In this document: positions 7,435-45,760 of the stretch, in pieces
Layout: the number at the start of each line of letters is the position of its first letter
Numbering within the stretch: the first letter of the stretch is position 1
NCBI GenBank assembly: GCA_030390025.1
Contig: CM059452.1
Location: 8,556,001 to 8,620,000, forward strand
DNA: 64,000 nt
Direction of reading: 5' to 3'
Source: Squalus acanthias
Taxonomy: Eukaryota
Made by a program: the position numbers and the translations under genes
Notes under the pieces: model-generated
Told to the model about the DNA's origin: nothing
Database searches by the model: none
Seen by the model: only the letters and a program-made list of their open reading frames with translations

Positions 7435-7850
7435 CACCCCGGGCTGCCACTCTCAGTGTTTCTCACTGACACCAGCTCACACTGTCTCTGAGCTCACACC
7501 GGGCCGCCCACACTCAGTGTTTCTCACTGACACCAGCTCACACTGTCTCTGAGCTCACACCGGGCCGCCCAAACTCAGTGTTTCTCACTGACACCAGCTC
7601 ACGCTGTCTCTGAGCTCACACCGGGCCGCCCACACTCAGTGTTTCTCACTGACACCAACTCACACTGTCTCTGAGCTCACACCGGGCCGCCCACACTCAG
7701 TGTTTCGCACTGACAGCAGCTCACACTGTCTCTGAGCTCACACCGGGCCGCCCACACTCAGTGTTTCGCACTGACAGCAGCTCACACTGTCTCTGAGCTC
7801 ACACCGGGCCGCCCACACTCAGTGTTTCTCACTGACAGCAGCTCACACTG
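7435..7850. repeat. 61-bp minisatellite, ~7 copies
   Basis: Unit cacaccgggccgcccacactcagtgtttctcactgacaccagctcacactgtctctgagct. Confidence 0.95.
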
Positions 7851-8675
7851 TTAATGGTGGGCCCTTTTTTAGACATAGTATTCGGTATCTTTTAAACACA
7901 ATCTGACAAACTATTAAACAGCAATGTTGGTTCACACTGCCCCCTTGTGGCTGTTGGCTGATTCACATTTCAACTTTCGGTGCAATGAATGTAACGTGGA
8001 TTGGTCTGTCAGGACACCGCGAGGTTTATTTTGGGCCGTTTCTACGTGTCGTGTGAAAGACAGAATGGAGACACTCTTCGGGAATTCATTCTCAATGAAT
8101 CTTAATATATTAAAACACAAAAAGGTGATTCAGCCCATCAAGTCTTCACTTCCGTTCTCGCTCCCTGCACTCTTTAATAATTCTCTCAGTACCCAATATG
8201 CTTCTTTATAAAAGAATAATTGATGGAGTCTGCGTCACTAACTGTGTCTGGCAGAGAATTCCAGCTTCTCACCTCCCTTAAACAGGAATATCTTTGAAGA
8301 ATGAACTTCAGTCCGAAGGTTTTTTCCCTCTTTCCGAGTAGTTCCGGGATGTGTCCAGGTATTGTGGGTGAGGCCGGTAACGGTCAGACAGAATCCTCAC
8401 CCATTCCTGGGATCGGATGATCAGATGTCCGGGACAAAGCAGAACAGCTCACGGAGCCTGTGTGCCGGGGCCGCGGGCAGTGATGATGAACACAGACAGC
8501 GACAATGATCAGCGGCAGCTCATTGAAACCAGGCTCTTGGTTTGATTCAGGAAATGACGGGGACTCCGTGTGCTGACAGAAACACTTCAAATTCTCCCCT
8601 TCAGTCCGAGAGCTGCAACTGAGAGGAGGCACCGGGTGAAGTGCGGGCTCCCAGTGCGGGGAGACTGCGGCCATT

Positions 8676-10570: not shown

Positions 10571-12761
10571 GACGGCGAATAACGTCTGAGAGACAGGGAG
10601 GTTAAATGAGTTATGTAATACAAGCAGAGACCTTATCCAGTGCAGCAATAACTGAGACAGGGTCTAGTGTAATATAAACAGAGACAGGGCTTTGTGTAAG
10701 ATAAAGTGAGACATGGACCAGTGTAATATAAACAGAGACATGTTCTGGTTTAATGTAAACAGAGATAGGACCAAGTGTAACATCAACAGAGACATTGTCT
10801 AGTGCAGTAAAAACTGAGACAAGGTCTAGTGTAATATAAAGAGAGACATGGTCGAGTGCAGTAATTACAGAGACAGGGCCTCGGGTTATATAAACGGAGA
10901 CAAAGTCTAGTCTAATATAAACAGAGATTGGGGCTACTGCAGTAATAACAGAGACAGGGCCTAGTGCAATATAAATACAGATATGGTCTCGTGCAGCAAT
11001 AAATGTGACAGGGAGTAGGGTAATATAAACAGAGACAGAGAATGTTGCAGTAATAACTGAGACAAGGAATAGTGCAGTATAAACAAAGGCAGAGACTACT
11101 GCTGTAATAACTGAGATGGGGCCTAGTGTAATATTAACACAGACATGGTCCAGTGTAATATAAACAGAGACATGGTCTGGTGTAATATAAATAGAGACAG
11201 GGCCTAGTGCAATATAAATACAGACATGTTCTTGTGCAGTAATAACTGCAACAGGGTCTAGTGTAATAGAAACAGAGAAAGAATCTAATGCAGTAATAAC
11301 TGAGACAGAGTCTAGTGTAATATAAACAGAGTCAGGATCGAGTGCAGTAATAACAGGGACACGGTCTAGAGTAATATAAACAGAGAAGCAGTCTAGTGCA
11401 GTAATAACTGAGACAGGGTCTAGAGTAATAGAAACAGAGACAGGGCCTGGTGTAATATAAACAGAGACATGGCTCAGTGCAGCAATAACTGAGACACGGT
11501 CTGGAGTAATATAAACAGAGATATGGTCTAGTGCAGTAATAACTGAGACAGGGCCTAGTGTTATTTAAACGGAGACAGTGCCTACTGCAGTTATAACTGA
11601 GACAGGGCCTAGTGTAACACAAATCGAGACAGGGCCTAGTGCAATAATAACTGAGACCGGGGCCTAGTGTAATATAAATAGAGAAAGGGCCTAGTGTAAT
11701 ATAAATATAGACAGAGCAAAGTGTAATATAAAGAGAGACAGGGTCTAGTGTAGTATAAACAGAGACAAGGCCTAGTGTATTGTAAACAGAGACACGATCT
11801 AGTGCAGTAGTAACAGGGACACGGTCTAGAGTAATATAAACACGGAAACGGTCTCGTTCAGTAATAACTGAGATAGGGCCTAGTGTTATTTAAACGGAGA
11901 CAGTGCTTAGTGCAGTTATAACTGAGACAGGGCCTAGTGTAACACAAACCGAGACAGGGCCTAGTGCAATAATAACTGAGACCGGGGCCTAGTGTAATAT
12001 AAACAGAGACAGGGCCTAGTGCAGTAATAACTGGCGCAGTGCTTAGCATAATACAAAAAAACACAGGGTATATTGCAGTAATAACTGAGACAGTGTCTAG
12101 TGTAATACAAATACAGATATCGTCTAGTGCAGTAATATAAGTGACAGATGTAATGTAATATAAAGAGAGACAGGGTCCAGTGTAATGTAAACAGAGACAG
12201 GGTCTAGTGTAATATAAACAGAGACAGGGCTTAGTGTAATATAAAGTGAGACATGGTCCAGTGTAATATAAACAGAGACATGTTCTGGTTTAATGTAAAC
12301 AGAGATAGGCCAAGTGTAATATAAATAGAGACATTGTCTAGTGCAGTAAAAACTGAGACAGGGTCTAGTGCACTAATTACAGAGACAGTGCCAAGTCTAA
12401 CATACACAGAGACAGGGTATAGTATAATATAAACAGAATCAAGATCTAGTGCAGCAATAACAGAAACACGGTCGAGAGAAATATAAACAGAGAAACGGTC
12501 TAGTGCAGTAATAGATGAGACAGGGCCTAGGGTTATATAAACGGAGACAAAGTCTAGTCTAATGTAAACAGAGATTGAAGCTACTGCAGTAATATCACAG
12601 ACAGAACCTAGTGTACTAAACACAAAGATAGAGTCTACTGCAGTAATAACTGAGACAGGGCCTAGTGTAATAGAAACAGAGACAGAGAATGTTGTAGTAA
12701 TAACTGAGACAGGGCCGAGTGTAATATAAACAGAGACATGGTCTAGTGCAGTAATAACTGA

Positions 12762-12940
12762 TGCGGAGATGCCGGTGTTGGACTGGGGTGGACAAAAGTG
12801 AGAAGTCGCACAACACCAGGTTATAGTCCAACAGCTTTATTTGAAATCACAAGCTTTCGGAGCGCTGCTCCTTCACCTGACGAAGGAGCAGCGCTCCGAA
12901 AGCTTGTGATTTCAAATAAAGCTGTTGGACTATAACCTGG
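12762..12940. mobile_element. Miniature Penelope-like element (inverted pseudo-LTR only)
   Basis: Same terminus as 15972 and 47928; 59-bp inverted arms at 12816-12874 and 12882-12940; flanked by agtaataactga. Confidence 0.8.
12872..12910 (+). ncRNA. Minimal type I hammerhead ribozyme (Penelope-associated)
   Basis: tcac-CTGACGA-aggagc agc gctcc-GAAA-gc-TT-gtga. Confidence 0.7.
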
Positions 12941-15900
12941 AGTAATAACTGAGACAGTGCCTTGTGTAATATAAACAGAGATAGAGCCTAGTGCATTTAT
13001 AACTGAGACAGGGTCTAGTGTAATATAAACCGAGATATAGTCTAGTGCAGTAATAACTCAGACAGGGCCTAGTGTAATATAAACAGAGACAGGGTCTAGT
13101 GTAATATAAAGAGAGACAGGGTCTAGTGTAATATAAACAGCGACAGGGTCTAGTTTAGTATAAACAGAGACAGGGTCTAGTGTAATATAAACAGAGACAG
13201 GGTCTAGTGTAATATAAACAGAGACAGGGTCTAGTGTAATATAAACAGAGACAGGGCCAAGTGTAATATAAATAGAGATAGGGTTCAGTGTAATCTAAAC
13301 AGAGACAGGGTCTAGTGTAATATAAACAGAGACAGGGTCCAGTGTAATATAAACAGAGACAGTGTCTAGTGTAATATAAAGAGAGACAGGGCCTAGTGTA
13401 ATATACACAGAGAAACGGTCTAGTGTAACATAAACAGAGACAGGGTATATTTCAGTAATAGCAGAGACAGGGCCGAGTGTACTATAAACAGATATAGAGT
13501 CGAGCGCAGTAATAACTGAGAGAGTGTCTAGTGTAATATAAACAGAGACAGGGCCTAGTGTAATATAAACAGAGACAGGGTCTAGTGTAATATTAACAGA
13601 GACAGAGTCTAGTGTAATATAAACAGAGACAGGGCCTAGTGTAATATAAACAGAGACATGGTCTAGTGTAATATAAACAGAGACAGGGTCTAGTGTAATA
13701 TAAACAGAGACAGGGTCTAGTTTAGTATAAACAGAGACAGGGCCTAGTGTAATATAAACAGAGACAGGGTCTAGTGTAATATAAACAGAGACAGGGTCTA
13801 GTTTAGTGTAAACAGAGACAGGGTCCAGTGTAATATAAACAGAGACAGGGTCTAGTTTAGTATAAACAGAGACAATGCCAAGTGTAATATAAATAGAGAT
13901 AGGGTTCGGTGTAATATAAACAGAGACAGGTCCTAGTGTAATATAAACAGAGACACGGTCTAGTGCAGTAATAACAGGGACACGGTCTAGAGTAATATGA
14001 ACAAGGAAACGGTCTAGTTCAGTAAAAACGGAGATAGGGCCGAGTGTTATTTAAACAGAGACAGTGCCTTGTGCAGTTATAACTGAGACAGGGCCTAGTG
14101 TAACACAAACCAAGACAGGGCCTAGTGCATTAATAACTGAGACCGGGGCCTAGTGTAATATAAACTGAGACAGGGTCTAGTGCAGTAATAACTGGCGCAG
14201 TGCTTAGCATAATACAAATAAAGACAGGGTATATTCCAGTAATAATTGAGACAGTGTCTATTGTAATACAAATACAGATATGGGCTAGTACAGTAATATA
14301 AGTGACAGGATGTAATGTAACATAAACAGAGACAGAGACTACTGCAGTAGTAACTGAGATGGGGCCAAGTGTAATATAAACAGAGACATGGTCTAGCGGA
14401 GTAATAACTAAGACAGTGCCTAGCGGAATATAAAAATGACAGGGCCGAATGTAGTAATAGCAGAGACATGGCCTAGTGTAATATAAACAGAGAGAGGGCC
14501 TAGTGTAATATAAACAGAGACAGGTTCTAGTGTAATATAAACAGAGAGAGGGCCTAGTGTAATATAAACAGAGACAGGTTCTAGTGTAATATAAACAGAG
14601 ACAGGGTCTAGTGTGATATAAACAGAGACAGGGCCTAGTGTAATATAAACAAAGACAGGGTCTAGTGTAATATAAACAGTGACAGGGTCTAGTGTAATAT
14701 AAACAGAGACAGGGTCTAGTGTAATATAAATAGAGACAGGTTCTAGTGTAGTAATAACTGAGACAGGGTTTAGTGTAATATAAACAGAGAGAGGGTCTAG
14801 TGTAATATAAACAGAGACAGGGCCTAGTGTAATATAAACAGAGACAGGGTCTAGTGTAATATAAACAGAGACACGGTCTAGTGTAATATAAACAAAGACA
14901 GGGTCTAGTGTAATATAAACAGTGACAGGGTCTAGTGTAATATAAACAGAGACAGGGTCTAGTGTAATATAAACAGAGACACGGTCTAGTGTAATATAAA
15001 CAAAGACAGGGTCTAGTGTAATATAAACAGAGACAGGGCCTAGTGTAATATAAACAGAGACAGGGCCTAGTGTAATATAAAAAGAGACAGGGTCTCGTGT
15101 AATATAAACAGAGACAGGGTCTAGTGTAATATAAACAGAGACAGGGTCTAGTTTAATATTAACAGAGACAGGGTCTAGTGTAATATAAACAGAGACAGGG
15201 GCTAGTGTAATATAAACCGAGACAGGGTCTAGTGCAGTAATAACAAAGACAGAATCTAGTGTAACATAATCAGAGTCAGGGTCCAGTGCAGCAATAACGG
15301 AGACATGGTCTAGTGTAATATAAACAGAGACAGTGTCTAGTGTAATATAAACAGAGACAGTGTCTAGTGCAGTTATAACTGAGACAGGGCCTAGTGTAAT
15401 ATAAATGGACATGCCCTGGTGCATTAATAATTGAGACAGGGCCTAGTGTAACACAAACGGAGACAGGGTATAGTGCAATAATTACTGAGACGGGGCCGAG
15501 TGTAATATAAACAGAGACAGGGCCTATTGTAATATAAGGAGTCATGTCCTGTGCAGTAATAACTGAGGCAATGCCTCGTGTAATCTAAACAGAGATTGGT
15601 CCATTGCAATTATAAATGAGACAGGATCTAGTGTAATATAAACAGAGACTGCGTCTTGTAGTAATAACTGAGACAGGGCCAATGTAATATAAACAGAGAC
15701 AAGGTCTAGTGCAGTAATAACTGAGACAGGACCTAGTGCAATATAAATAGAGACATGGTCTAGTGTAATATAAACAGAGACAGGGCCTAGTGTAATATAA
15801 ACAGAGACATGGTCTAATGCAGTAATAACTGAGACAAGGCCTAGTGTAATATAAACAGAGACTGGGTCTTGTAGTAGTAACTGAGACAGGGCCAATGTAA

Positions 15901-16057
15901 TATAAACTGAGACAAGATCTAGTGCAGTAATAACTGAGAAAGGGCCTAGTGTAATATAAGTAGAGGTCATGATGCGGAGATGCCGGTGTTGGAATGGGGT
16001 GGACAAAATTGAGAGGTCGCACAACACCAGGTTATAGTCCAACAGTTTTATTTTAAA

Positions 16058-19690: not shown

Positions 19691-20014
19691 ATTGAGAGAC
19701 TATTGCTGAGATTTCATGTCTCAGTTTTCTGGCTTGTCCAAGTCACTAACAGAATACCTGTTCATTTGCTTAAACTAGATGAACTTCACGTTAATAATTC
19801 CACAATTGGTAATTTCAGATTGTTAATTTCGTAAAAATTGAAGTTTTTCTACATTTCTAATCATCCAATATGGAGATCAATCACAATTCAGTAACTCCAT
19901 GAATCAAAGATGATTCATATTTTGCTGCGGAGGATTAATCTGAATGTTGAATCAAAACTATATATATTCCTCATCAAGGTCATTTTTTAGCAATATTGCG
20001 CATCAAACACTCCC

Positions 20015-20700
20015 AGTCAGGAACAACATAGGTTAGATACAGAGTAAAGCTCCCTCTACACTGTCCCATCAAACATTCCCTCGGCAGGTACAGCACGGGT
20101 TAGATACAGAGCAAAGCTCCCTCTACACTGTCCCATCAAACACTCCCAGGGCAGGTACAGCATGGGTTGGTTCCAGAGTAAAGCTCCCTCTACACTGTCC
20201 CATCAAACACTCCCAGGGCAGGTACAGCACGGGTTAGATACAGAATAAAGCTCCCTCTACACTGTCCCATCAAACACTCCCAGGTCAGGTACTGCACGGG
20301 TTAGATACAGAGTAAAGCTCCCTCTGCACTGTTCCATCAAACACTCCCAGGGCAGGTACAGCACGGGTGAAATACAGTGTAAAGCTCCCTCTGCACTGTT
20401 CCGTCAAACACTCCCAGGGCAGGTACAGCACGGGTTAGATACAGAGTAAAGCTCCCTTTACACTGTCCCATCAAACACTCCCGGGGCAGGTACAGCTCGG
20501 GTGAGATACAGAGTAAAGCTCCTTCTACACTGTCCCATCAAACACTCCCAGGGCAGGTACAGCACGGGTTAGATACAGAGTAAAGCTCCCTCTACACTGT
20601 CCCATCAAACACTCCCAGGGCAGGTACAGCACGGGTTAGATACAGAGTAAAGATTCCACTACATTGTCCAATTAAACATTCCCAGGGAAGGGACAGGACG
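20015..20700. repeat. 67-bp tandem repeat, ~10 copies (also 33378-33625)
   Basis: Unit cccatcaaacactcccagggcaggtacagcacgggttagatacagagtaaagctccctctacactgt. Confidence 0.95.
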
Positions 20701-20962
20701 GGAGAGATAATCGAATTTCCGGCAGGATCAGGACCGATTATGGTGAAATTGTGAAAAAATGAACTTGTGTTTCCAAATAAACAATACATCTTGTTTTTAT
20801 TCCATTAAATGGCTCTGATGATGTACTTTACTCATTTTAATTACCTTGTTACTGATTGTACTTGTATCGCTCTCGCTTCTGAAACCCGTGGGCAGGGAGT
20901 CTCCTCGCTCCCCGGGATGAGTGAGTTCTTGTCCAGGCTCCTCACCTCTTTGTTTCACCGTG

Positions 20963-31849: not shown

Positions 31850-34800
31850 TAAGCAGCCATGAAGGACAGAGATTCCCACAATGCACAGCGGGCCAGAATA
31901 GGCCCAATGTAGACCACGGGCCGTCCTGCTCCCTGGGAGCACTGTTCGCACATGCGCAACTCGCCTACCGCTTCAATTGTCGCTGTCTGTATCTTTATCT
32001 CTGTCGCATATTTTCTCCTTTTTATTAAGAAAGGAAGATCGCTTCTTTCGTGGGAATTGAAGTCACATGTCACACCGCACGTCACACAAACATGGCAGTC
32101 GCCACTTTGCCCTGAACTGGATGACGCCACAATGCTTTTCGCATGTCACAGCACCGCGATTGGCTGATTTTCACATTCATTGAGGGTCAGGGATCAGGGC
32201 TGTAACCCCGGGGTTGTCAGCTCGGAAAGTCTTCAATGGGCCCTGTACCACCCGATATTCTCGGAGCCTGGGAACAGGATACAGAGCCGGGAGACACAGC
32301 GATGGTGGCTGAAGGTATTTGTCGCTTTGAGGGGAGGGAGAGAGATTGGGGCAGAGACATAGTTTAAACAGCAACTCCATCAATTTGCAATGTTCCTTCC
32401 CAGCCCTTCAGAAGGGCCGTATAATTCTTCCGTTCCTCAACCCCATCATAAATTCAACCACAGGAGACCTCGCGCCTGGACTCCAGGGATTCAGAGGGAA
32501 AGCGGCGCCGCATCAGAGGGAGAATGCAGGAAGATACTCGGGTTGGGCCAGAAACCTCTGGAGATGTTCCCGGGGCCGGGAGGCACCGAAAGAGTCCAAG
32601 GATCCGGTTAAGGTCGTGGAGCAAAACTGCAGGGAAACAGGGAGCGGAGATCTGAAGGTCATAGGCGGTACACAGCAGTGATGTTCACTGAGTTGATGGA
32701 GATGGTACAAGAAGGAATGGAGCAGAGCAGGGAGAAAGGATCCCTGGGGTGATGATCAGTGAGTTCAGGGAGTTGGTATCAGGGGGAATGGAGCAGAGCA
32801 GGGAGAAAGGTCGTCAGGGATACAGGAGACAGATGGTCAGGGTAAATGGGTGTGGCTCAGATTGGAGAAGGGTTGGAAGTGGTTACCCCAGTGCTGGGCC
32901 GACTCTTTTATTGGTCTGTGTGGAATCTAACAGAGCAGGTGGAGAGAGAGATAGTTTGTGTGTATAGCAGAAAAAGTGAAAACAGTCTATGTGTGTGTGT
33001 ACAAAAGAAAAGCTGTAGAGAGAGCCTGTGTGTCGGATAGGCCCCAGACTCTTAGAATCATTTCCAGGGTATGTGCTCCCCAGTGTGTCTGTGTCAGATA
33101 TCTAACAAGTGTGTACCTGCCGTGGGAGCGTTTGATGGAACAGTGTAGAGGGAGATTTACTCTACCATGTACTGTAATGCATCAAGCTGTGATGGAGCAG
33201 GGCCCTGCACTTTATTAGAAACTGGCATGTGACTGTTACAGGCCATAATATTAGAGGAGACTGCAATGGGCGCCTGGTCGCTGTGCAGTCATTCCGCCTC
33301 AGGGTCTTGACATAAAAAGGCACTGGTAATGGTGTCTTTACACTGATAGGACACTGGGTGGCGCAGTGGCTCCATAACTGTCCCATCAAACACTCCCAGG
33401 GCAGGTACAGCACGGGTTAGATACAGAGTAAAGCTCCCTCTACACTGTCCCATCAAACACTCGCAAGCCAGGTACAGCACAGGTTAGATATCGAATAAAG
33501 CTCCCTTTACACTGTCCCATCAAACACTTCCAGGGCAGGTACAGCACGGGTTAGATACAGAGTAAAGCTCCCTCTGCACTGTCCCATCAAACACTCCCAG
33601 GGCAGGTACAGCACGGGATAGATATCTGACACAGATGCACCAGGGAGCACAAACCCTGGGGATGATTCCCAGAGCCTGGGGCCTATCTGACACAGCCTCT
33701 CTCCAGCTTTTAGACAGTATTTGAGGGAGAGGAGATGAGGGATCGCGCGGTGTCCACAGACACATTTGGAGCCTTCTGCCTCCAGTGGGCACAACTAGAT
33801 AAAGGTTGTGATAAAATCAAATTCTAATGGAATATAATTTTAGTTTTGTTCAGGCCAAGTGTGCGAGTGGAGCCCTCCTCTCGGGTGGGCACTAGTGGAA
33901 TATATTTTTGTTTTGGAATCGCCCCTTTAAAGGAGACCCGAGTTCAAATGGTCCACACAGACCAAAGGAGCAAAGTAGGCCCAGCACTGGGGTAACCACT
34001 TCCAAGCCTTCTTCAATCTCAGCCACACCCATTAACCCTGACGCTCTGTCTCATGTTTCCCTGGCGATATTTCTCCCTGCTCTGCTCCATTCCCGCTGAC
34101 ATCATCTCCCTGAACTCACTGAACATCACCCCAGGGATCCTTTCTCCCTGCTCTCCTCCATTCCTTCTTGTACCAACTCCAGAACTCACTGAACATCACC
34201 CCAGGGATCTTTCTCTCTGCTCTGCTCCATTCTCTCTCATACCATCGACCTGAACTAAATGAACATCAATCCAGGGATCCGCAGTGACCTTCAGATCTTT
34301 GCTCCCTGTTTCCTTGAACTTTCGCACCACGTCCTTCACCGTCTCATCGGATTAGTTCGGTGACTCCGTGCCACGTGAGCATCTCCAGAGGTTTCTGGCC
34401 AGGCCCGAGTATCTTCTGGCATTTTCCTTCAAATGCGGTTCTGCTCTTCTTCGAAACTCCTAGAATTCAGGCGTGAGGTGTCCTATAGTTGAACATGACA
34501 TCGGGTTAAGAGAGGGAAGAATTAACGGACCGTCTGAAGGGAGATTGGGAATGTATGGAGTTGGTGCTTATACTCCGTCTCTGCCACAATCTCTCACCCC
34601 TCCCCCTATCCGGGGCCGCCATCCCCTCCAATATCATCCTCGTCTCACTTCCCTGTTCCCAGGCTCTCACTGACTCCGGGCTCGGTGATTCTCATGGAGT
34701 GCAGGGTCCCTTTAAGAGGCCCCGTGCTGCCCCCGCCCACTCCTCGGGTTCATAGGACTGAGTCAGGGGTCACAGGTGCCACAAACTGGGGCTCTTTAGC

Positions 34801-35711: not shown

Positions 35712-36105
35712 CTCTCTCTCCGTGCTCTGTATCACTGTGTGTCTGTAATCCCCACCATGTTCAGGTTTGTGAACTCTCTCCGTGCTCTGTATCACTGTGT
35801 GTCTGTAATCCTCACCATGTTCAGACTGTGAACTCTCTCCGTGCTCTGTATCACTGTGTGTCTGTAATCCCCACCATGTTCGGGTTGTGAACTCTCTCCG
35901 TGCTCTGTATCACTGTGTGTCTGTAATCCCCACCATGGTTATGTTCAGGTTTGTGAACTCTCTCCGTGCTCTATATCACTGTGTGTCTGTAATCCCCACC
36001 ATGTTCAGGTTTGTGAACTCTCTCCGTGCTCTGTATCACTGTGTGTCTGTAATCCCACCATGTTCAGGTTTTTGTACGGCTCTCTCCGTGCTCTGTATCA
36101 CTGTG
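35712..36105 (-). repeat. ~60-bp tandem repeat built from the supporting-V RSS (6 extra copies plus the true RSS at 36067-36105)
   Basis: Each unit contains CACAGTG, most of the spacer and, in most units, an ACAAACCTG-like nonamer. Confidence 0.9.
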
Positions 36106-36411
36106 CTGTGCGCGGACTCAGTGCACAGTAATACACAGCGGAGTCACTCAGTTGCAGTTTCGCGATGTTTAAGCGGCTGATTTTCTGCGCACCATCGACA
36201 GAAGCAGAAATTCGGCCACCGGCAGCGTTTTCTTTATTCCCCTCTCCTGAAGTGTGTCTCTGAAGCAGGTATTTCGGAGCCTTTCCTGGGGACTGACGGT
36301 ACCAGTGTACTGTGTGCTGACAGACCCCTGAATATTCGCAGTTTAAAGTAATGGTGTCTCCGGCAGCAGAGGTTTGTAGAGGCGGACCCTGGGACATCGA
36401 GAAACTGGAAT
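36106..36411 (-). CDS. NAR-TCR supporting TCR delta V exon
   Basis: Phase-1 acceptor tctcgcag|AT; TLNCEYSGVCQHTVHWYRQ (extra CDR1 Cys)..DSAVYYCALSPRT; RSS CACAGTG-23-ACAAAAACC; lies downstream of NAR-TCR J donors and has no adjacent canonical leader. Confidence 0.88.
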
Positions 36412-36559
36412 CTGCGAGATTAAAATGGGGAATTGTTATTTATTTGGCTGCTGTTTACCCGGGGACACTTGTCAATCACAGGAATAGTTCTCTCTCTCGT
36501 GGTAATGCCGTTCTACTTTTGAAGCCTGTTCCAACTTTATTCACTGTAATTGGCAAAAG

Positions 36560-36830
36560 CACCGGCGTGGGGAGGGGGTGGGCGTGGGGTAGGAGAAATG
36601 TATTTGCGCAGTGGGCCGTTATGATCTGGAATGCACTGCCTGAAAGGGTGGTGGGAGCAGATTCAATCGTAACTTTCAACAGGAAATTGAATTAATACTG
36701 GAAAAGGAAAATTTGTCAGGACTATGGGGAAAGAGCGGGGCGAGTGGGACTAATTGAATAGTTCCTTCAAAGAGCCGCACAGACAAGGTGGGCCGAATGT
36801 CCTCCTTCTCTGCTGTATGATTCTATGATT
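36560..36830 (+). mobile_element. CR1 LINE 3' fragment
   Basis: ..MIWNALPERVV..; ctatgattctatg tail. Confidence 0.65.
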
Positions 36831-37424
36831 TCTATTGAATTTCAGGTTTTATTTTTCTTCGTGAAAGATAAACCTGAAAAAAATAATAGTAAATTCTCCT
36901 CCTCACTGAGACAACCACATTCCAATGATGTTTGACCGAGAGTGACCCGGCTGTGTAATGTCACTGCGCACAGCAAGATCCAACAGAAAGCAGTGAGATT
37001 CATCAACATCGATTGAGCCAAACTGACACTGAAAATCTGTGGGTCAAAGGTCAATCTTTTACTGCAGTTTAACAGTTCACGGGAGCTCCTGTCTGCCTCT
37101 CGCTCTATTTGTCTCTTTTCTTCCATCAGTGGGGCCCGTTTGTTCCATTTCACTTTAATTTGAATTATTTACAGTTAGTTTCATTTTATTTCTACATCTG
37201 GGTCGCTCACTTTGTGCTGTTTGTGGTTTTTTGCCAGCCTGAGAACTTGTCCCAAAGTCTCTCAGTTGTCGGTTGAGTTCAGTCTGTGCAGTTTCCGCAG
37301 TGGTTTTACTGTTACTCACTGGGAACTGGCTCTTCCGGCTCTCTGACAGCTTCAATTCCTTCAGCCCATTGGCTGATTCTCTCCCGTGTTGTCCGGGCGG
37401 AGTTTTCTCTGAGTTTTACATTAA

Positions 37425-37860
37425 ACAGAATCTGCAGAACAGGAACAGGCCATTCGGCCCAACTGGTCTGTGCGGTGTTTATACTCCACACGAGCCTCCC
37501 CCCACTCTAATTACCTCTTCACACTCTGACCCCTGTATCTCTCGATTCCTTCCCCCCCCCCTGTATTTTTCAAACCTCCCCTTAAATGCATCAACGCTAT
37601 CTGCTCCAACCGCTCCGTGTGGCAGCGAGTTCCACATTCTGACTCCTCTCTGTGTGAATAAATTCTTCCCAATGTCTTTATTTGTTCTGTTAGTGACTAT
37701 CTTATATTTGTGGCCCCTTGTTCTGGACTCACCCACAATGGAAACAGTTTCCCCACGTGCACCCTATCGAACCCCTTCATCATTTTAATCACCTCCATCA
37801 GGTCTCCTCGTTTTCTTCTCTTTTCCAGAGAAAAGAGTCCCCGCCTGTTCAATCTTTCCA
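37425..37860 (-). mobile_element. CR1 LINE 3' fragment (another at ~38270-38530)
   Basis: GESRTRGHKYKI..FTQRGVRMWNSLP. Confidence 0.7.
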
Positions 37861-39194
37861 GAAATGTGTGGATTGCTGCTGATGTCTTTTCTCAGGAGTG
37901 TAAGAAATTCAAAGTTGAGAAAAGGGCCCGAGTCCAATCGCAGCCCGTCCCTCCAGTAAATCTCACTGCCCCGGTGTCGGATTGTGCTTTGAACGGCCCA
38001 GAGACCGGTGTCTCCACACCCCCGCCCGGCCGGTGAAGTCCGATATTTCTCTCCCTTTCGGTGAACTATTTCTTGCTGGTTCTAAGTGGACTTCCCTCCA
38101 GTCTGTACTTGTTCCCTAAGGTGTTCCTGCTCTCCTTTATAGGAACATTAGAACCTCGCCCTCACTCGCTCACTGCCCAGTGTTGTTTCAGTTAACAGTA
38201 ACCAGGGATACAGATAAATTACTGCAATCCGATCTCTCAAACATGAACATTAATATTACAGCGAATTACACAGAATGTAGAGCACAGAAACAGGCCATTG
38301 GGTCCAATCGGTCCATGCCGATGTTACTGCTCCACACGAGCCTCCTCCCACCCCTACTCCATCTCACCCCATCAACAGATCCTTCTATTCCTTTCTCCCT
38401 CACCTACTTATCTAGATTCCCCTTCAATGTATCGATGTTATTCGGCTCAACTGCTCCTTGTGGCAGCGAGTTCCACATTCTGACCACTCTCTGGGTAAAG
38501 AAGTTCCTCCTGAATTCGCCATTGGATTGATTAGAAAACAGTAAAAAAAAATTAACAGCTTCTGTGGTTCGAAGCTTTTACTTTTCGACTTAAACGGGCA
38601 ACGTGGAGGGAAAATGATTGTTTATATAAAAGCAATCGGAATAAATGTCAGATAAAATACAACTAATTTCAGTCACTGAGTGTCCAATAATGAAATGCCA
38701 TCTAAACCTACAGGCGGATCACTTGTATCTGAAGCCCCGCCATGTTGTGCTCCAGTATTTCTGCCGCTGTAGGTATCGGACCTGATTGGCTTGTTGATAT
38801 TAATTTTGAAATAAACACAATAATTGTGGGCAATGAAGGGGTTATTAGGACATTGGGATAAAGATTCATTCTAGAGTTGTGAAGATTATTTGGGGGGTGG
38901 GAGATGGAGTAGGGACAGAGATGGAAAAACAAGTCGAGCTGTGCTGCTTTAAGTGCTGTGTCTGTGCTGGACGCCTGCGCGCTGACTGAGAGCGATTCTG
39001 AGGGAAGGCCGAATGGATCGCTGCTTACTTCGTCCCACCCCCACCCCCACCACCCGCCCAACCTCCAAACCCCTGATTCCAGCCCCGAGTTTGTCTTTTT
39101 TTTGGATAGACAAGTTAAATAGGATGAAAGTCCCTTCCTTGTCTTAATTTAGATCGTGATCTTTTATTTTTACTTTCAAATGTATGGTAATGAT

Positions 39195-39645
39195 TTAAGA
39201 AATAACAGCAGGAGTAGGCCATACGGCCCTTCGATCCTGCTCAACCATTCAATAAGATCAAGGCTGATCAACGACCTCAACTCCACTTTCCCGCCTGATC
39301 TCCATATCCCTTGGTTCCCCTAGAGTCCAAAAACCTATCTATCTCAGCCTTGAATATACTCAACGATTCAGCATTCACAGCCCTCTGGGGCAGAGAATAA
39401 CAAAGATTCACAACCCTCTGAGTGAAGAAATTACTCGTCATCTCAGTCTTAAATGGCCTACCCCTTATCCGGAGACTATGCCCCCTAGTTCTAGACACTC
39501 CAGCCAGGAAACAACCTCTCAGCATCTACCCTGTCAATCCCCTTCAGAATCTTGTATGTTTCAATGAGATCACCTCTCATTCTTCTAAACTCCAGAGAGT
39601 ATAGGCCCATTCTACAAATCCCTCATCATAGGACAGCCCTCTCAT
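39195..39645 (-). mobile_element. CR1 LINE 3' fragment (duplicated at ~42895-43370)
   Basis: SRTRGHSLRIRGRPF..FTQRVVNL. Confidence 0.85.
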
Positions 39646-39967
39646 CCCACCTTTTCTTGAATACAACTTTTCTTGCCAGAGATTATAAAGATAGTGTTCC
39701 TACTTGTCCAAGAACAATATTAATATACAAACATGATTCATGTGATGTGAACTATGCAGCGAAGCAGTTCTCACACTAAATAATCTGTTGTGGGAAAATG
39801 GCACCTATAAATATCAACAATTATCCGTCTTGATATGTTTGGTCAGTATTACAGAATTAGCCACTTCACTGCTAAACATGATGCGATAGAACGTTTTGCT
39901 TCTAATATTCTTTACTCTTCTCTGAAGTACATTCCCACAGCCGGCATTAACTGTTCCGGCAATAACG

Positions 39968-40050
39968 TATCGGACGGGCCGCTGCAGGTATCGGACGGGC
40001 CGCTGCAGATATCGGATGGGCCGCTGCAGATATCGGACGGGCCGCTGTAT
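39968..40050. repeat. 21-bp GC-rich minisatellite, ~4 copies
   Basis: Unit tatcggacgggccgctgcagg/aga; paralog of 43689-43940. Confidence 0.9.
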
Positions 40051-40549
40051 TGTTGGGTTCACTCTCCCGGTACCTCATTCACACTGACCGGCTCGGACTG
40101 GAATCTCCTGCCCAGGATAGAGCTTTGTGACCCTCTGCCCTGCCCACAGGGACAGGCAGAGCTCCCTCAGTCACAGTTAACACCGAGAGCGGAGGTCGGA
40201 GTGTCGATAATCTGCGCTCATTTAAACCAACTGGCGATCAGAGTAAGAGAGACTCCGGGATATTCGTGGGATCCCCAGAGGTCTCCGTTATACCAATGAT
40301 GGTCCAGGTGGGGTAAACCTCCCCAGACTGCCTGCTCCGTGGGGGTCTCACACCTCCTCTCTCCGGACGAACACACGTACCCGGCCCCGGTTCATATTCT
40401 GCTCCCGAATCTAAAGCTGCAATGAAACCCCTTAGAAAACCGGTTTGTTTGATTTTGAGGGGATTCTAGTAATACTGATCACAATAATAAACTGACGGTG
40501 AACATTAACCGGGACAGTCTGTAACACGGCGGAGTTTGGAGTCACTTAC

Positions 40550-41081
40550 CGGCTTTGACAGTCACCACCGTCCCGGATCCATCCACAGTATCATGGTGAT
40601 CCTTCCGGTACGAGTACTCAGCTTTACAGTAATAGGTGGCGCTGTCTTCAACTCGCACATCCCGAATTTCCAACGAAAATGTCTTGTCTGCCTTATTAGT
40701 CGACACAACAAATCGCCCTCCGCTCGAGATCGGCTCCCGCTCTGTCCCGGTCCGGGTTTGTCTGAAGAAATCCCCACGCGTTAAAGAACGAGCGCAAAAA
40801 TCACCATCGAAAAGGCAGGTGATGGTGAGAGACTGACACTCCTCCCTGGTCACCGCTGGCGGGGTCTGTGTCACTGACTGACTGAAAGAGCCTGGAAATT
40901 AAACAGAGAGAGTTTAATGGACCATCAGAGCCGAACCACACAACGGAGCTAAAACCCAGACAGTGTCCGCAATTCGGATGGACCCGGGCAGCTTTATATT
41001 AAATCCACACAATGTCGGTTTGTTTGATCGGTACTCACGGGGTAAACAGACACACAGGGTGAAAACAAGGAGGATTCCCAT
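40550..41081 (-). CDS. NARTCR: Pre-joined NAR-TCR VDJ gene (leader 41039-41081, VDJ exon 40550-40891)
   Basis: MGILLVFTLCVCLP|R SFSQSVTQTPPAVTREECQSLTITC..FFRQ..ISSGGRFV..FSLEIRDVRVEDSATYYCKAEYSYRKDHHDTVDGSGTVVTVKA|gtaag; IgNAR-like short FR2/HV2; no RSS; TATAAA at ~41106. Confidence 0.9.
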
Positions 41082-41459
41082 CGTTCTGTTGCCTGGAGCT
41101 GATGGTTTATATGACGGGGAGCTGGAGACTGCCGCCCTGGACTGTTCTGGGAGACTGTACCTCAGAGCTGGACTGAAATACTTTATGGGACCGAGTTAAT
41201 TAGCACAGGGCGGTGTCCCAGAGGTCAGTGATGGGCCATTCGGTTCCCGGATCTCTGGCTGTGTGTTGTGTGAATAAACGACAGTTATAAACCTGCAGTT
41301 TTCTGGCCCTTCATTGGGTCTCTGAGCCCGGTGTGAAAGCTCCTTCCACATTAGTCTGATGTTCAGGGGGCAGTTGTTCTGTCAGCAGAGGCTGCCGCTG
41401 TCTTTTGTCCCACAGTAATGAGCTGGGAGATCGGTTCATGTGTTTTTATTGTGTGGTGT

Positions 41460-42895: not shown

Positions 42896-43688
42896 ATAAG
42901 AACATAAGAACAAAAGAAATAAGAGCAGGAGTAGGCCATACGGCCCCTCGAGCCTGCTCCGCCATTCAATAAGATCATGGCGGATCTTTGACCTCAACTC
43001 CACCTTCCCGCCCGATCTCCATATCCCTTGATTCCCCGAGAGTCCTAAAAATCTATCTATCTCAGCCTTGAATATACTCAAAGACTCACCATCCACAGCC
43101 CTCTGGGGCAGAGAATTCCAAAGATTCACAACCCTCCGAGTGAAGAAATTCCTCCTCATCTCAGTCTTAAATGGCCGACCCCTTATCCTGAGACTATGCC
43201 CCCTAGTTCTAGACACTCCAGCCAGGAGAAACAATCTCTCAGCATCTACCCTGTCAATCCCTTCAGAATCTTGTATGTTTCAATGAGATCACCTCTCATT
43301 CTTCTAAACTCCAGAGAGTATCGGCCCATTCTACTCAATCTCTCATCATAGGACAGCCCTCTCATCCCACCTTTTCTTGAAATCACCTTTTCTTGCCAGA
43401 GATTATAAAGATAGTGTTCATACTTGTCCAAGAACAATATTAATATACAAACATGATTCATATGATGTGAACTATGCAGCGAAGTAGTTCTCACACTAAA
43501 GAATCTGTTGTGTGAAAATGGCACCTATAAATATCAAGAATTATCGGTCTTGATATGTTTGATCAGTATTACAGAATTAGCCACTTCACTGCTAAACAGG
43601 ATGCTATAGAACGCTTTCCTTCTTAGTTACTTTACTCTTCAAGGAAGTACATTCCCACAGCCGGCATTAACTGTTCCGGCAATAACGT

Positions 43689-43940
43689 ATCGGACGGGCC
43701 GCTGCGGGTATCGGACGGGCCGCTGCGGATATCGGACGGGCCGCTGCGGGTATCGGACGGGCCGCTGCGGATATCGGACGGGCCGCTGCGGGTATCGGAC
43801 GGGCCGCAGTGGCTATCGGACGGGCCGCTGCGGGTATCGTATCGGACGGGCCGCTGCGGGTTATCGGACGGGACCGCTGCGGGTATCGGACGGCCGCTGC
43901 GGGTATCGGACGGGCGCTGCGGTATCGGACTGGCCGCTGT
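43689..43940. repeat. 21-bp GC-rich minisatellite, ~12 copies
   Basis: Unit tatcggacgggccgctgcggg. Confidence 0.92.
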
Positions 43941-44451: not shown

Positions 44452-44499
44452 CGGCTGTGACAGTCACCACCGTCCCGGATCCATCCACATAATAATAAC
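44452..44499 (-). CDS. NARTCR: NAR-TCR J segment
   Basis: GGTTCTTGT-23-CACTGTG (44500-44538), then YYYVDGSGTVVTVTA|gtaag. Confidence 0.93.
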
Positions 44500-44882
44500 C
44501 ACAGTGACACCGCTCTCAGTCACCCCGGTACAAGAACCACCGACACCTCAATCTGCCGGACACACATCACCAGACAGTCGGCGCTGCCCAATTATTCCAG
44601 GGATCAATAAACAATATTCCGTGTTCCACAGTCCCCGTCGGTTCAAACTGTTCTTTGTGAGACTCTGAGCTCTCAGTAAAATGGCCCAGGAACACGGGCC
44701 GGAGATGGGCGCTTCCTATCAACGGAGCAAATATCAAAGAAAGAAAACTGAAAGTAGGAAATGACAATTAAATTAAACCAGATTACAGCGATAATAAGAT
44801 CAAACCGCCAATTCGGGTTCCGGGCCCAGGGAATTTATATTTTAATTGTACACAGGTATTTGCTCAGGTCGCATCCACTGTG

Positions 44883-44895
44883 AGGTTCCAGTAAA
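44883..44895 (-). CDS. NARTCR: NAR-TCR D segment (TTTACTGGAACCT)
   Basis: Flanked on both sides by perfect heptamers with 12-bp spacers (44855-44882 and 44896-44923). Confidence 0.9.
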
Positions 44896-45285
44896 CACAG
44901 TGTTTCAAGTCAGCATCAAATCCCCCGGTACTCGGTGAGATGAGGGGACATTAGTTGCACGGCGGGGACCGCGGTTCCCGGTTCCAGCTTTTAGAACAGG
45001 ATCCCATCTGGAGTTCGGGACTTGTAACTGGGATCAGTCATTCCCAATCGCCATTTATTGACACCAATCCCGGGAAAGACGTCACCGCCCGCACACACTC
45101 AGCATTTACAAAACTCAAGGTGTTAACTGCAATAATCCAATCTGATTATAAACTAGACTGTGGGGCAGACGGTGCGAGGCGGAACTGTGGGTTTACCGGC
45201 AGATTAACTCCGCTTTTTCACTTGTTTCTGTCACAATCTGCAGCGAGAGTTTTTGTATCGCGGGAAGCCGAAGCCCATCACTGTG

Positions 45286-45760
45286 TGGTGTAGTACTCAG
45301 CTTTACAGTAATAGGTGGCGCTGTCTTCAACTCGCACATCCCGAATTTCCAACGAAAATGTCTTTTCTGCCTTATTAGTCCTCACAACAAATCGCTCGCC
45401 GCTCGAGATCCGCTCCCGCTCTGTCCCGGTCTGGGTTTGTCTGAAGAAATGTCCATTATGAAAATTATAATCCCAATAACCACCATAGAAAACGCAGATG
45501 ATGCTGAGAGACTGACACTCCTCCCTGGTCACCGCTGGCGGGGTCTGTGTCACTGACTGACTGAAAGAGCCTGGAAATTAAACAGAGAGAGTTTAATTGG
45601 CCATCAGAGCCGAACCACACAACGGGGCTAAAACCCAGACAGTGTCCGCAATTCGGATGGATCCGGGCAGCTTTATATTAAATCCACACAATGTCGGTTT
45701 GGTTGATCGGTACTCACGCGGTAAACAGACACACAGGGTGAAAACAAGGAGGATTCCCAT
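45286..45760 (-). CDS. NARTCR: Unrearranged NAR-TCR V segment (leader 45718-45760, V exon 45286-45570)
   Basis: Same leader as the joined copy; TREECQSLSIICVFYGGYWDYNFHNGHFFRQ..DSATYYCKAEYYT; RSS CACAGTG-22-ACAAAAACT at 45248-45285. Confidence 0.93.

Follow-up and report, generated by a model that had tools for sequence, protein, structure and literature searches.

The window (the whole 64,000-nt stretch of Squalus acanthias DNA analysed) lies in a TCR alpha/delta V array of a cartilaginous fish, with many V exons and RSSs with 22–24-nt spacers in both orientations. On the minus strand, at window positions 41081–40550, it holds a leader and, after an intron of 147 nt, a NAR-TCR V(D)J exon that is in frame and from which all four RSSs are missing (Table 1). 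The NAR-TCR, reportedly described by Criscitiello in 2006, is said to be a doubly rearranging TCR-delta of cartilaginous fish. In the joined exon, V runs directly into J and then into a consensus donor at 40549 (−). The exon is open and in frame, its CDR3 region reads KAEYSYRKDHHDTVDGSG, and it encodes a cysteine in the a-b loop (residue 18), the canonical cysteine pair and an extra cysteine in CDR1. The open in-frame VDJ, leader, leader intron, TATA-like box, J donor and downstream intron described in an earlier, sequence-only reading of this DNA are all present, on the minus strand.

Table 1. Coordinates of the joined gene and the neighbouring elements of its cassette in the window
Feature	Position	Strand	Remarks
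TATA-like box of joined gene	41104..41113	−	From sequence; same motif above the unrearranged paralog
Leader exon	41039..41081	−	ATG at 41081; 14 codons + 1 nt, hydrophobic; GT donor at 41038
Leader intron	40892..41038	−	147 nt, GT-AG, retained
Germline-joined NAR-TCR V(D)J exon	40550..40891	−	342 nt, phase 1-1, open
Junction core	40595..40613	−	19 nt, between shared V end and J-templated part
J-derived part	40550..40594	−	Ends at splice donor; 3 nt trimmed relative to J of C29:7892721
Intron from J donor to supporting Vdelta	36412..40549	−	4138 nt
Leaderless supporting TCR-delta V exon	36106..36411	−	CDR1 Cys; open; phase-compatible acceptor
23-spacer RSS of supporting Vdelta	36067..36105	−	Consensus heptamer and nonamer
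Upstream unrearranged NAR-TCR leader, intron and V exon	45286..45760	−	Open; no CDR1 Cys
V RSS of upstream block	45248..45285	−	22-nt spacer
D segment with its RSSs	44855..44923	−	D at 44895–44883 (13 nt); 12-spacer RSS on each side
J RSS and J of upstream block	44452..44538	−	23-spacer RSS at 44538–44500

The unrearranged paralog at 45760–44452 has 786 nt between the end of V and the start of J, in agreement with the loss of about 790 bp and four RSSs proposed earlier for the joined gene, and its J donor lies 3370 nt above the ATG of that gene. The order of the cassette is a rearranging NAR V-D-J, the joined exon and a leaderless supporting Vdelta. All five joined copies in the assembly (see below) have an open supporting Vdelta with an RSS downstream, and all lie 3.3–5.4 kb below an open NAR block, which is unrearranged in four cases and VD-joined in one. 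In the 4138-nt intron above the supporting Vdelta no leader-like exon was found, and the positive controls were detected. A separate contig, C911, whose linkage to contig C29 was assumed, carries Ddelta with 12/23 RSSs, Jdelta segments that have 12-RSSs, and a C exon resembling that of TCR-delta. Tandem repeat arrays occupy 10614–15965, 7435–7851, 20001–20709, 33377–33626, 35714–36105 and 43680–43940 of the window; the array at 35714–36105 contains repeated copies of the supporting V heptamer-spacer.

The joined exon encodes a NAR-TCR V domain related to IgNAR. Its best sequence match in the PDB is the VNAR 8hgi_C (E=3.9e-23), the best fold matches are again VNARs (2ywy_A, TM 0.76), and an AlphaFold2 model (mean pLDDT 85.6) has the VNAR fold. 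The marks of NAR-TCR are a leader, a cysteine in the a-b loop, the lack of the WYR tryptophan and a position above a leaderless Vdelta with a CDR1 cysteine (PMC1845163; this and the other papers are cited for those parts of them that were accessible). The joined exon has its own leader, lost in two of the five copies; the a-b loop cysteine, C18, is invariant across 35 aligned sequences; and the tryptophan of the WYRK motif is absent, GDFF standing at that place. With the VNAR matches, the a-b loop cysteine and the supporting Vdelta downstream, the identity first suggested for the exon is borne out. One trait of NAR-TCR differs: the NAR domain normally arises from a somatic V(D)J rearrangement of its own, whereas here it is joined in the inherited DNA and no RSS is left, so the exon is a variant rather than a typical member. 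Only the supporting V rearranges, there are two NAR blocks per supporting V, and the CDR1 cysteine is additional. As predicted from the DNA, the splice phases of the joined exon and the supporting Vdelta are compatible with NAR–Vdelta splicing.

Membership of an IgNAR cluster was rejected, as IgNAR-type V exons lie elsewhere (C29 16.7–18.0 Mb, C1516, C2561) and the next exon here is a Vdelta; the IgNAR-type exons are 43–47% identical over the full exon and have the W motif. Those at C29:16.7–18.0 Mb (L056–L058) share a contig with the TCR alpha/delta array, which is consistent with the linkage reported in PMC12227049.

The CDR1 cysteine is present in five of five joined copies versus none of the 21 other parsed NAR V exons, and in 3 of 62 NAR-like domains of fetched proteins. 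It follows the first canonical cysteine by 7 residues (6 in the supporting Vdelta), aligns with the CDR1 cysteine of the solved VNAR 8hgi_C and has no partner in CDR3. Two joined copies (L002 and L003; C29:6808998 and 7896057) have a second CDR1 cysteine, giving CxxC. A complex prediction with the joined domain and the supporting Vdelta as separate chains scored 0.01, a value that weighs neither for nor against their contact.

The junction was compared with 17 V ends, 13 D segments and 17 J starts. Over the 14 nt just before the J core the junction is identical to three germline Js, and the last seven bases (ATGATAC), previously taken as untemplated, proved to be germline J sequence, standing at the start of 3 of the 17 unrearranged J segments. 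The earlier match of TACCGGAA to the D core (7/8) stands, but the use of a D does not follow from it: the 11 nt after the shared V end also match the V 3' end of the paralog C29:8867482 (8/11), so these opening 11 nt of the core can be read as a V end with a D core or as a V end with the D core inside it, and D use is not established. Eight junction bases remain, five of which are found in a D variant. Once all paralog ends, standing in for the parent alleles, had been compared, only 3–8 nt within GGATCACC were without a template. The junction had been described as of RAG/TdT type; its breakpoints are indeed of the RAG type, but the TdT part of the claim is weakened by this small number of bases, and TdT may possibly have acted here, on thin evidence.

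A 17-nt junction word gave five exact matches in the genome, all inside NAR V-J exons, and a sixth with one mismatch on another contig. With up to one mismatch allowed, the pattern reversed as a control matched 20 times, so the word alone is not rare and its rarity lies in its context. The neighbour at 45760 was rejected as the parent, its V exon being outside the nearest relatives of the joined exon; the nearest unjoined V exons are 5.8–6.5% apart from it.

Searching the genome itself, we found six full-length matches among the 40 of 46 candidates that were scored, and five of them carry the same junction (C29:6809482, 7896541, 8200692 and 8596600, and C3620:38667). The five copies vary at one site in the 39 nt of CDR3; their downstream introns differ by 1.8–5.4% and the DNA above them by 1.5–6.4%. 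A tree on 560 nt of the downstream intron places all five in a single clade (support 100/99), and the V exon tree puts them together with two pseudogenes (88/92). Trees on the upstream DNA and on the leader intron separate three copies from the other two or give no resolution. A single ancestral join was copied, as part of its cassette, to at least five places. The copy on the small contig C3620 could be allelic to C29:8200219, although their upstream partners differ.

Four of 23 public runs, from two studies, were examined, each being the best holder of one of the organism labels A–D; they consist of contigs rather than raw reads, one may be the assembly's own sample, and the tissues are not on record. 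Contigs cross the junction without any difference in all four DNA runs (40565–40642, 40565–40672, 40558–40672 and 40472–40648). Two of them reach at least 31 letters past both ends of the 19-nt core, and the other two have 29–30 letters on at least one side and satisfy the 31-letter rule at the midpoint of the core. Examining DNA of several individuals across the junction had been named as a check on the join, and at the level of contigs an unchanged junction was found under labels A–D. The join is germline and inherited, as the sequence-only reading had claimed, since one junction at five diverged loci and in several organisms excludes a somatic clone. When the branch length of the nurse shark NS4 light chains, 0.134 per 180 Myr (PMC2193156), is applied to the intron divergence, the copies of the join are, as a rough inference, about 35 Myr old, a figure that gene conversion would bias.

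A J pattern identified 27 NAR-TCR J segments in the assembly, and all of these were read, some small contigs possibly being haplotype copies. Fifteen of the 27 J blocks are pre-joined (six VDJ, five VD and four DJ) and 12 are unrearranged. The joins fall into six junction types, three VD, one DJ and two VDJ, one of the last in five copies and the other in one. Every join deletes a 12/23 RSS pair, ends in coding ends and retains the unused RSSs, and the two types of complete VDJ junction keep the reading frame and have no stop. The second VDJ join (L006, C29:9032151–9032817, minus strand) was found in the assembly as a single in-frame copy, and consists of a V end (19/21 match), nine D bases, a GC-rich insert of 13–20 nt, at least 13 of them untemplated, and J. 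One VD join has untrimmed ends on both sides and one A in between, as expected of a palindromic P base. The 12/23 pairing, the breakpoints in coding ends, the P-like A and the GC-rich insert argue for repeated action in germ cells on the NAR-TCR locus by an enzyme that we infer to be RAG. Germline V(D)J joining thus reaches a shark T-cell locus, and often, as joins at the DNA level found across individuals. The copy number, the five further junction types, the layout of the cassette and the clade-specific CDR1 cysteine had been missed when the sequence was first read. A retrocopy is ruled out by the 147-nt leader intron. In marsupial V-mu-j the leader intron has been lost; the joined gene, unlike it, is a DNA-level join, as had been concluded from the retained intron.

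The DJ junction was also seen as a loose end in run X2. Among the DJ-joined blocks (L038, L043, L047 and L055) the V exon is broken in all three that were read of the four, and among the VD-joined ones (L026, L034, L033, L039 and L042) one V exon of five is frameshifted. Both kinds of block retain the RSSs needed to complete rearrangement somatically. The second VDJ join has a diverged supporting Vdelta and no upstream NAR block within 14 kb.

Three of the five copies have an intact promoter, leader, splice sites and frame, one of them with a Val-to-Asp change in the leader core. The other two lack the leader donor and have insertions of 1.3–2.8 kb above the start; their exon is still open, with an in-frame deletion of 9 nt. 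In the intact copies 3 of 342 exon sites are variable versus 111 of 2641 flank sites (Fisher p=0.0008), and in the leader-dead pair 5 of 333 versus 59 of 2574 (p=0.43), with no synonymous and five non-synonymous changes. For CDR3 alone the difference was not significant (1/39 vs 249/2472, p=0.17). Three copies look functional, and the leader-dead two would be relics. Gene conversion may contribute to the conservation of the exon, since the leader intron and the synonymous sites are also quiet in the intact copies, two of these are near-identical from −300 to +2000 (2.3 kb), and in 3 of 136 pairs of unjoined paralogs V differs by 1.1–1.5% and the flanks by 3.0–9.5%.

Germline-joined Ig genes in sharks are established (PMC2193156). 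In the NS4 light chains, as here, the RSSs are fully removed and the leader intron is kept, joined genes stand beside split ones, and the joins come from several independent events, include partial joins and are stable across animals; here, however, the locus is that of a T-cell receptor and one join has been amplified five-fold. NS4 joints show little evidence of TdT (PMC2193156), whereas the second join here has a long GC-rich insert. V-mu-j of marsupial TCR-mu shares with our case a germline-joined V exon below a rearranging V-D-J, a duplicated cassette and a TCR-delta-derived chain (PMC7615758, PMC3457774). It is VH-like, serves as membrane-proximal support and has been ascribed to retrotransposition (PMC7615758), whereas the joined exon is of the NAR type, still has a leader intron and promoter of its own and lies above a Vdelta that rearranges. 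In 2023 TCR-mu was named as the only germline-joined TCR case (PMC7615758); the pre-joined TRD V-J of the newt Pleurodeles waltl adds another, a conventional Vdelta-J on one haplotype, with no leader of its own and not NAR (PMC12698447). Good descriptions of germline-joined TCR exons had until now come from marsupials and a single newt only.

In the literature covered, outside which the primary NAR-TCR papers lie, no main text was found to describe a NAR-TCR joined in the germline. The accessible parts of PMC5931798, PMC6795676 and PMC3457774 describe NAR-TCR as doubly rearranging or structurally only, and the supplement of PMC3964593 gave no match. The statement of the sequence-only reading that it knew of no such case holds for main texts, but Table S1 of PMC12227049 (2025) labels the white-shark gene LOC121270133 'NARTCR V(gj)V(gi)V'. 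The same table has the label 'IgM (gj)', and if 'gj' stands for germline-joined, as we read it, joined, tandem NAR-TCR V exons had earlier notice. No discussion of the NAR-TCR label was found in the accessible text of that paper. Specialists have probably already noticed a candidate, on a gene model and without discussing it. XP_041031384.1, the probable protein of LOC121270133 (on no other grounds than species and description), differs in its CDR3 and lacks the CDR1 cysteine, and the gene predictor may have produced its join by reading through an RSS.

V-J-joined RefSeq models from other sharks were not accepted as germline joins, many of them containing peptides read through an RSS (such as THSD, AVSLW and VTVV). 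Models with tandem NAR domains, in horn shark (P0013, XP_067869961.1) and white shark (P0012, XP_041031384.1), are leads only. One CDR3 is common to basking and white shark models (P0032/P0034), by a germline join or by predictor read-through.

With moderate confidence, we favour a product of the form leader-NAR-Vdelta-Cdelta, in which the NAR domain is fixed and one rearrangement is made. RAG, the presumed agent of the inherited join, would once have joined a NAR-TCR V-D-J block in place and in frame in the germ line of an ancestor, and the cassette with the joined unit was then duplicated to the five or more copies seen. On the observed layout, phases and RSS compatibility, transcription, splicing, pairing and timing might run as follows. 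A T cell would join the supporting Vdelta, through its 23-RSS, to Ddelta-Jdelta, and the joined gene's own promoter would yield leader-NAR-Vdelta(D)J-Cdelta after one rearrangement instead of two. The resulting NAR-TCR delta chain would carry its fixed binding domain at the N terminus, on a support that varies, and by analogy with germline-joined shark Ig genes it would probably be favoured in young animals. Three copies would still yield such a chain, and the leader-dead two would not. The germline-joined NS4 light chains are expressed in pups, and germline-joined heavy chains of the horned shark have been reported as not expressed (PMC2193156 and citation therein). In protein searches the CDR3 of the joined exon was found in 0 of 84 fetched proteins, and the share of the search words in RNA runs was 0.00–0.10. 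With an inherited, fixed NAR domain some T cells could display a ready-made binding domain. The ligand of NAR-TCR is stated to be unknown (PMC7615758), and a fixed domain, being a single cloneable sequence, would make that question directly testable.

The extra CDR1 cysteine is not explained by a fixed N-terminal domain. It would be if the joined exon served as an internal second NAR domain, a possible but doubtful reading in which the upstream NAR J donor is spliced to the joined exon and this to the supporting Vdelta. The delta chain produced would have four domains (variable NAR, fixed NAR, Vdelta, Cdelta), and the new cysteine would take the disulfide from the a-b loop cysteine of the upper domain, as the supporting Vdelta does. 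Consistent with it are the place of all five copies below an open NAR block, the 1-1 phase, the acceptor at 40892 as the first of five acceptor-like sites below the upstream J donor, the rarity of the cysteine outside the joined copies and its nearness to the position of the Vdelta cysteine. The proximal domain of the tandem horn-shark model XP_067869961.1 also has a CDR1 cysteine, and the leader-dead copies keep an open exon, their 9-nt deletion being in frame. However, these copies, which could act in that role only, show no constraint (p=0.43, five non-synonymous changes), which counts against an internal domain as the selected function; the cysteine aligns with that of 8hgi_C and may be an ordinary change in CDR1; and the horn-shark and white-shark support comes from gene models, not DNA. 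The two products are not mutually exclusive. A TCR-delta in which three V domains are stacked, a somatic NAR, a germline-fixed NAR and a somatic Vdelta, with disulfides between a-b loop and CDR1 to hold them together, and built by repeated action of RAG, with TdT, in germ cells, is likewise a tentative proposal. If true, it would be a shark parallel to the marsupial V-mu/V-mu-j with one more domain, and the cassette predicts such a three-V receptor in a form that can be checked.

It is unlikely that the joined exon is an accident of germline RAG that segmental duplication spread and conversion kept uniform, its expression and function being slight or absent, with at most a role as a conversion donor. 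The two copies without a leader donor and with insertions above the start, the broken or frameshifted V exons of DJ and VD blocks and the visible conversion-like tracts would fit such an accident, but neither of the complete VDJ junction types has a stop or is out of frame, the junction is unchanged across four organism labels, and the intact copies are constrained while the leader-dead ones are not. Chance fusion of V to J by a non-RAG deletion, through microhomology or unequal crossover, has precedents in the locus in deletions independent of RSSs (C559:133594, without J and intron, and C29:10230491, with a shortened intron). It is nevertheless very improbable in view of six independent junctions within coding ends, with 12/23 pairing and exactly the unused RSSs retained, and of the nine D bases and at least 13 GC-rich untemplated bases of the second VDJ join and the palindromic A of one VD join. 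A somatic lymphocyte rearrangement or a mis-assembly, to which the unrecorded tissues of assembly and runs, the use of contigs only and the one run that may be the assembly's sample would lend room, is contradicted by the five diverged loci and four organism labels and can hardly be entertained; the depths of the junction contigs (8.7, 229.8, 25 and 8.2), which do not equal copy number, are not below those of the other listed pieces in the same runs.

We also noticed four broken NAR blocks (L045, L046, L044 and L040): in two of them the D 5' heptamer is interrupted by unrelated DNA, one is fused by deletion into the supporting V, and one has a J-to-Vdelta intron of about 0.3 kb. The 3' ends of NAR-TCR V exons (16–23 nt), the 5' starts of J segments (17–27 nt) and some Ds are strongly variable in length and sequence at the heptamers, and the adjacent framework is conserved. 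In two blocks, L024 (C29:6886965) and L035 (C29:8867482), the unrearranged V ends in a D core and heptamer, 18 nt being the same as in D with its heptamer, and a V-type spacer comes next. This suggests that recombination at the shared heptamer gave a VD join its V RSS back, which would be a way to diversify CDR3 ends in the germline.
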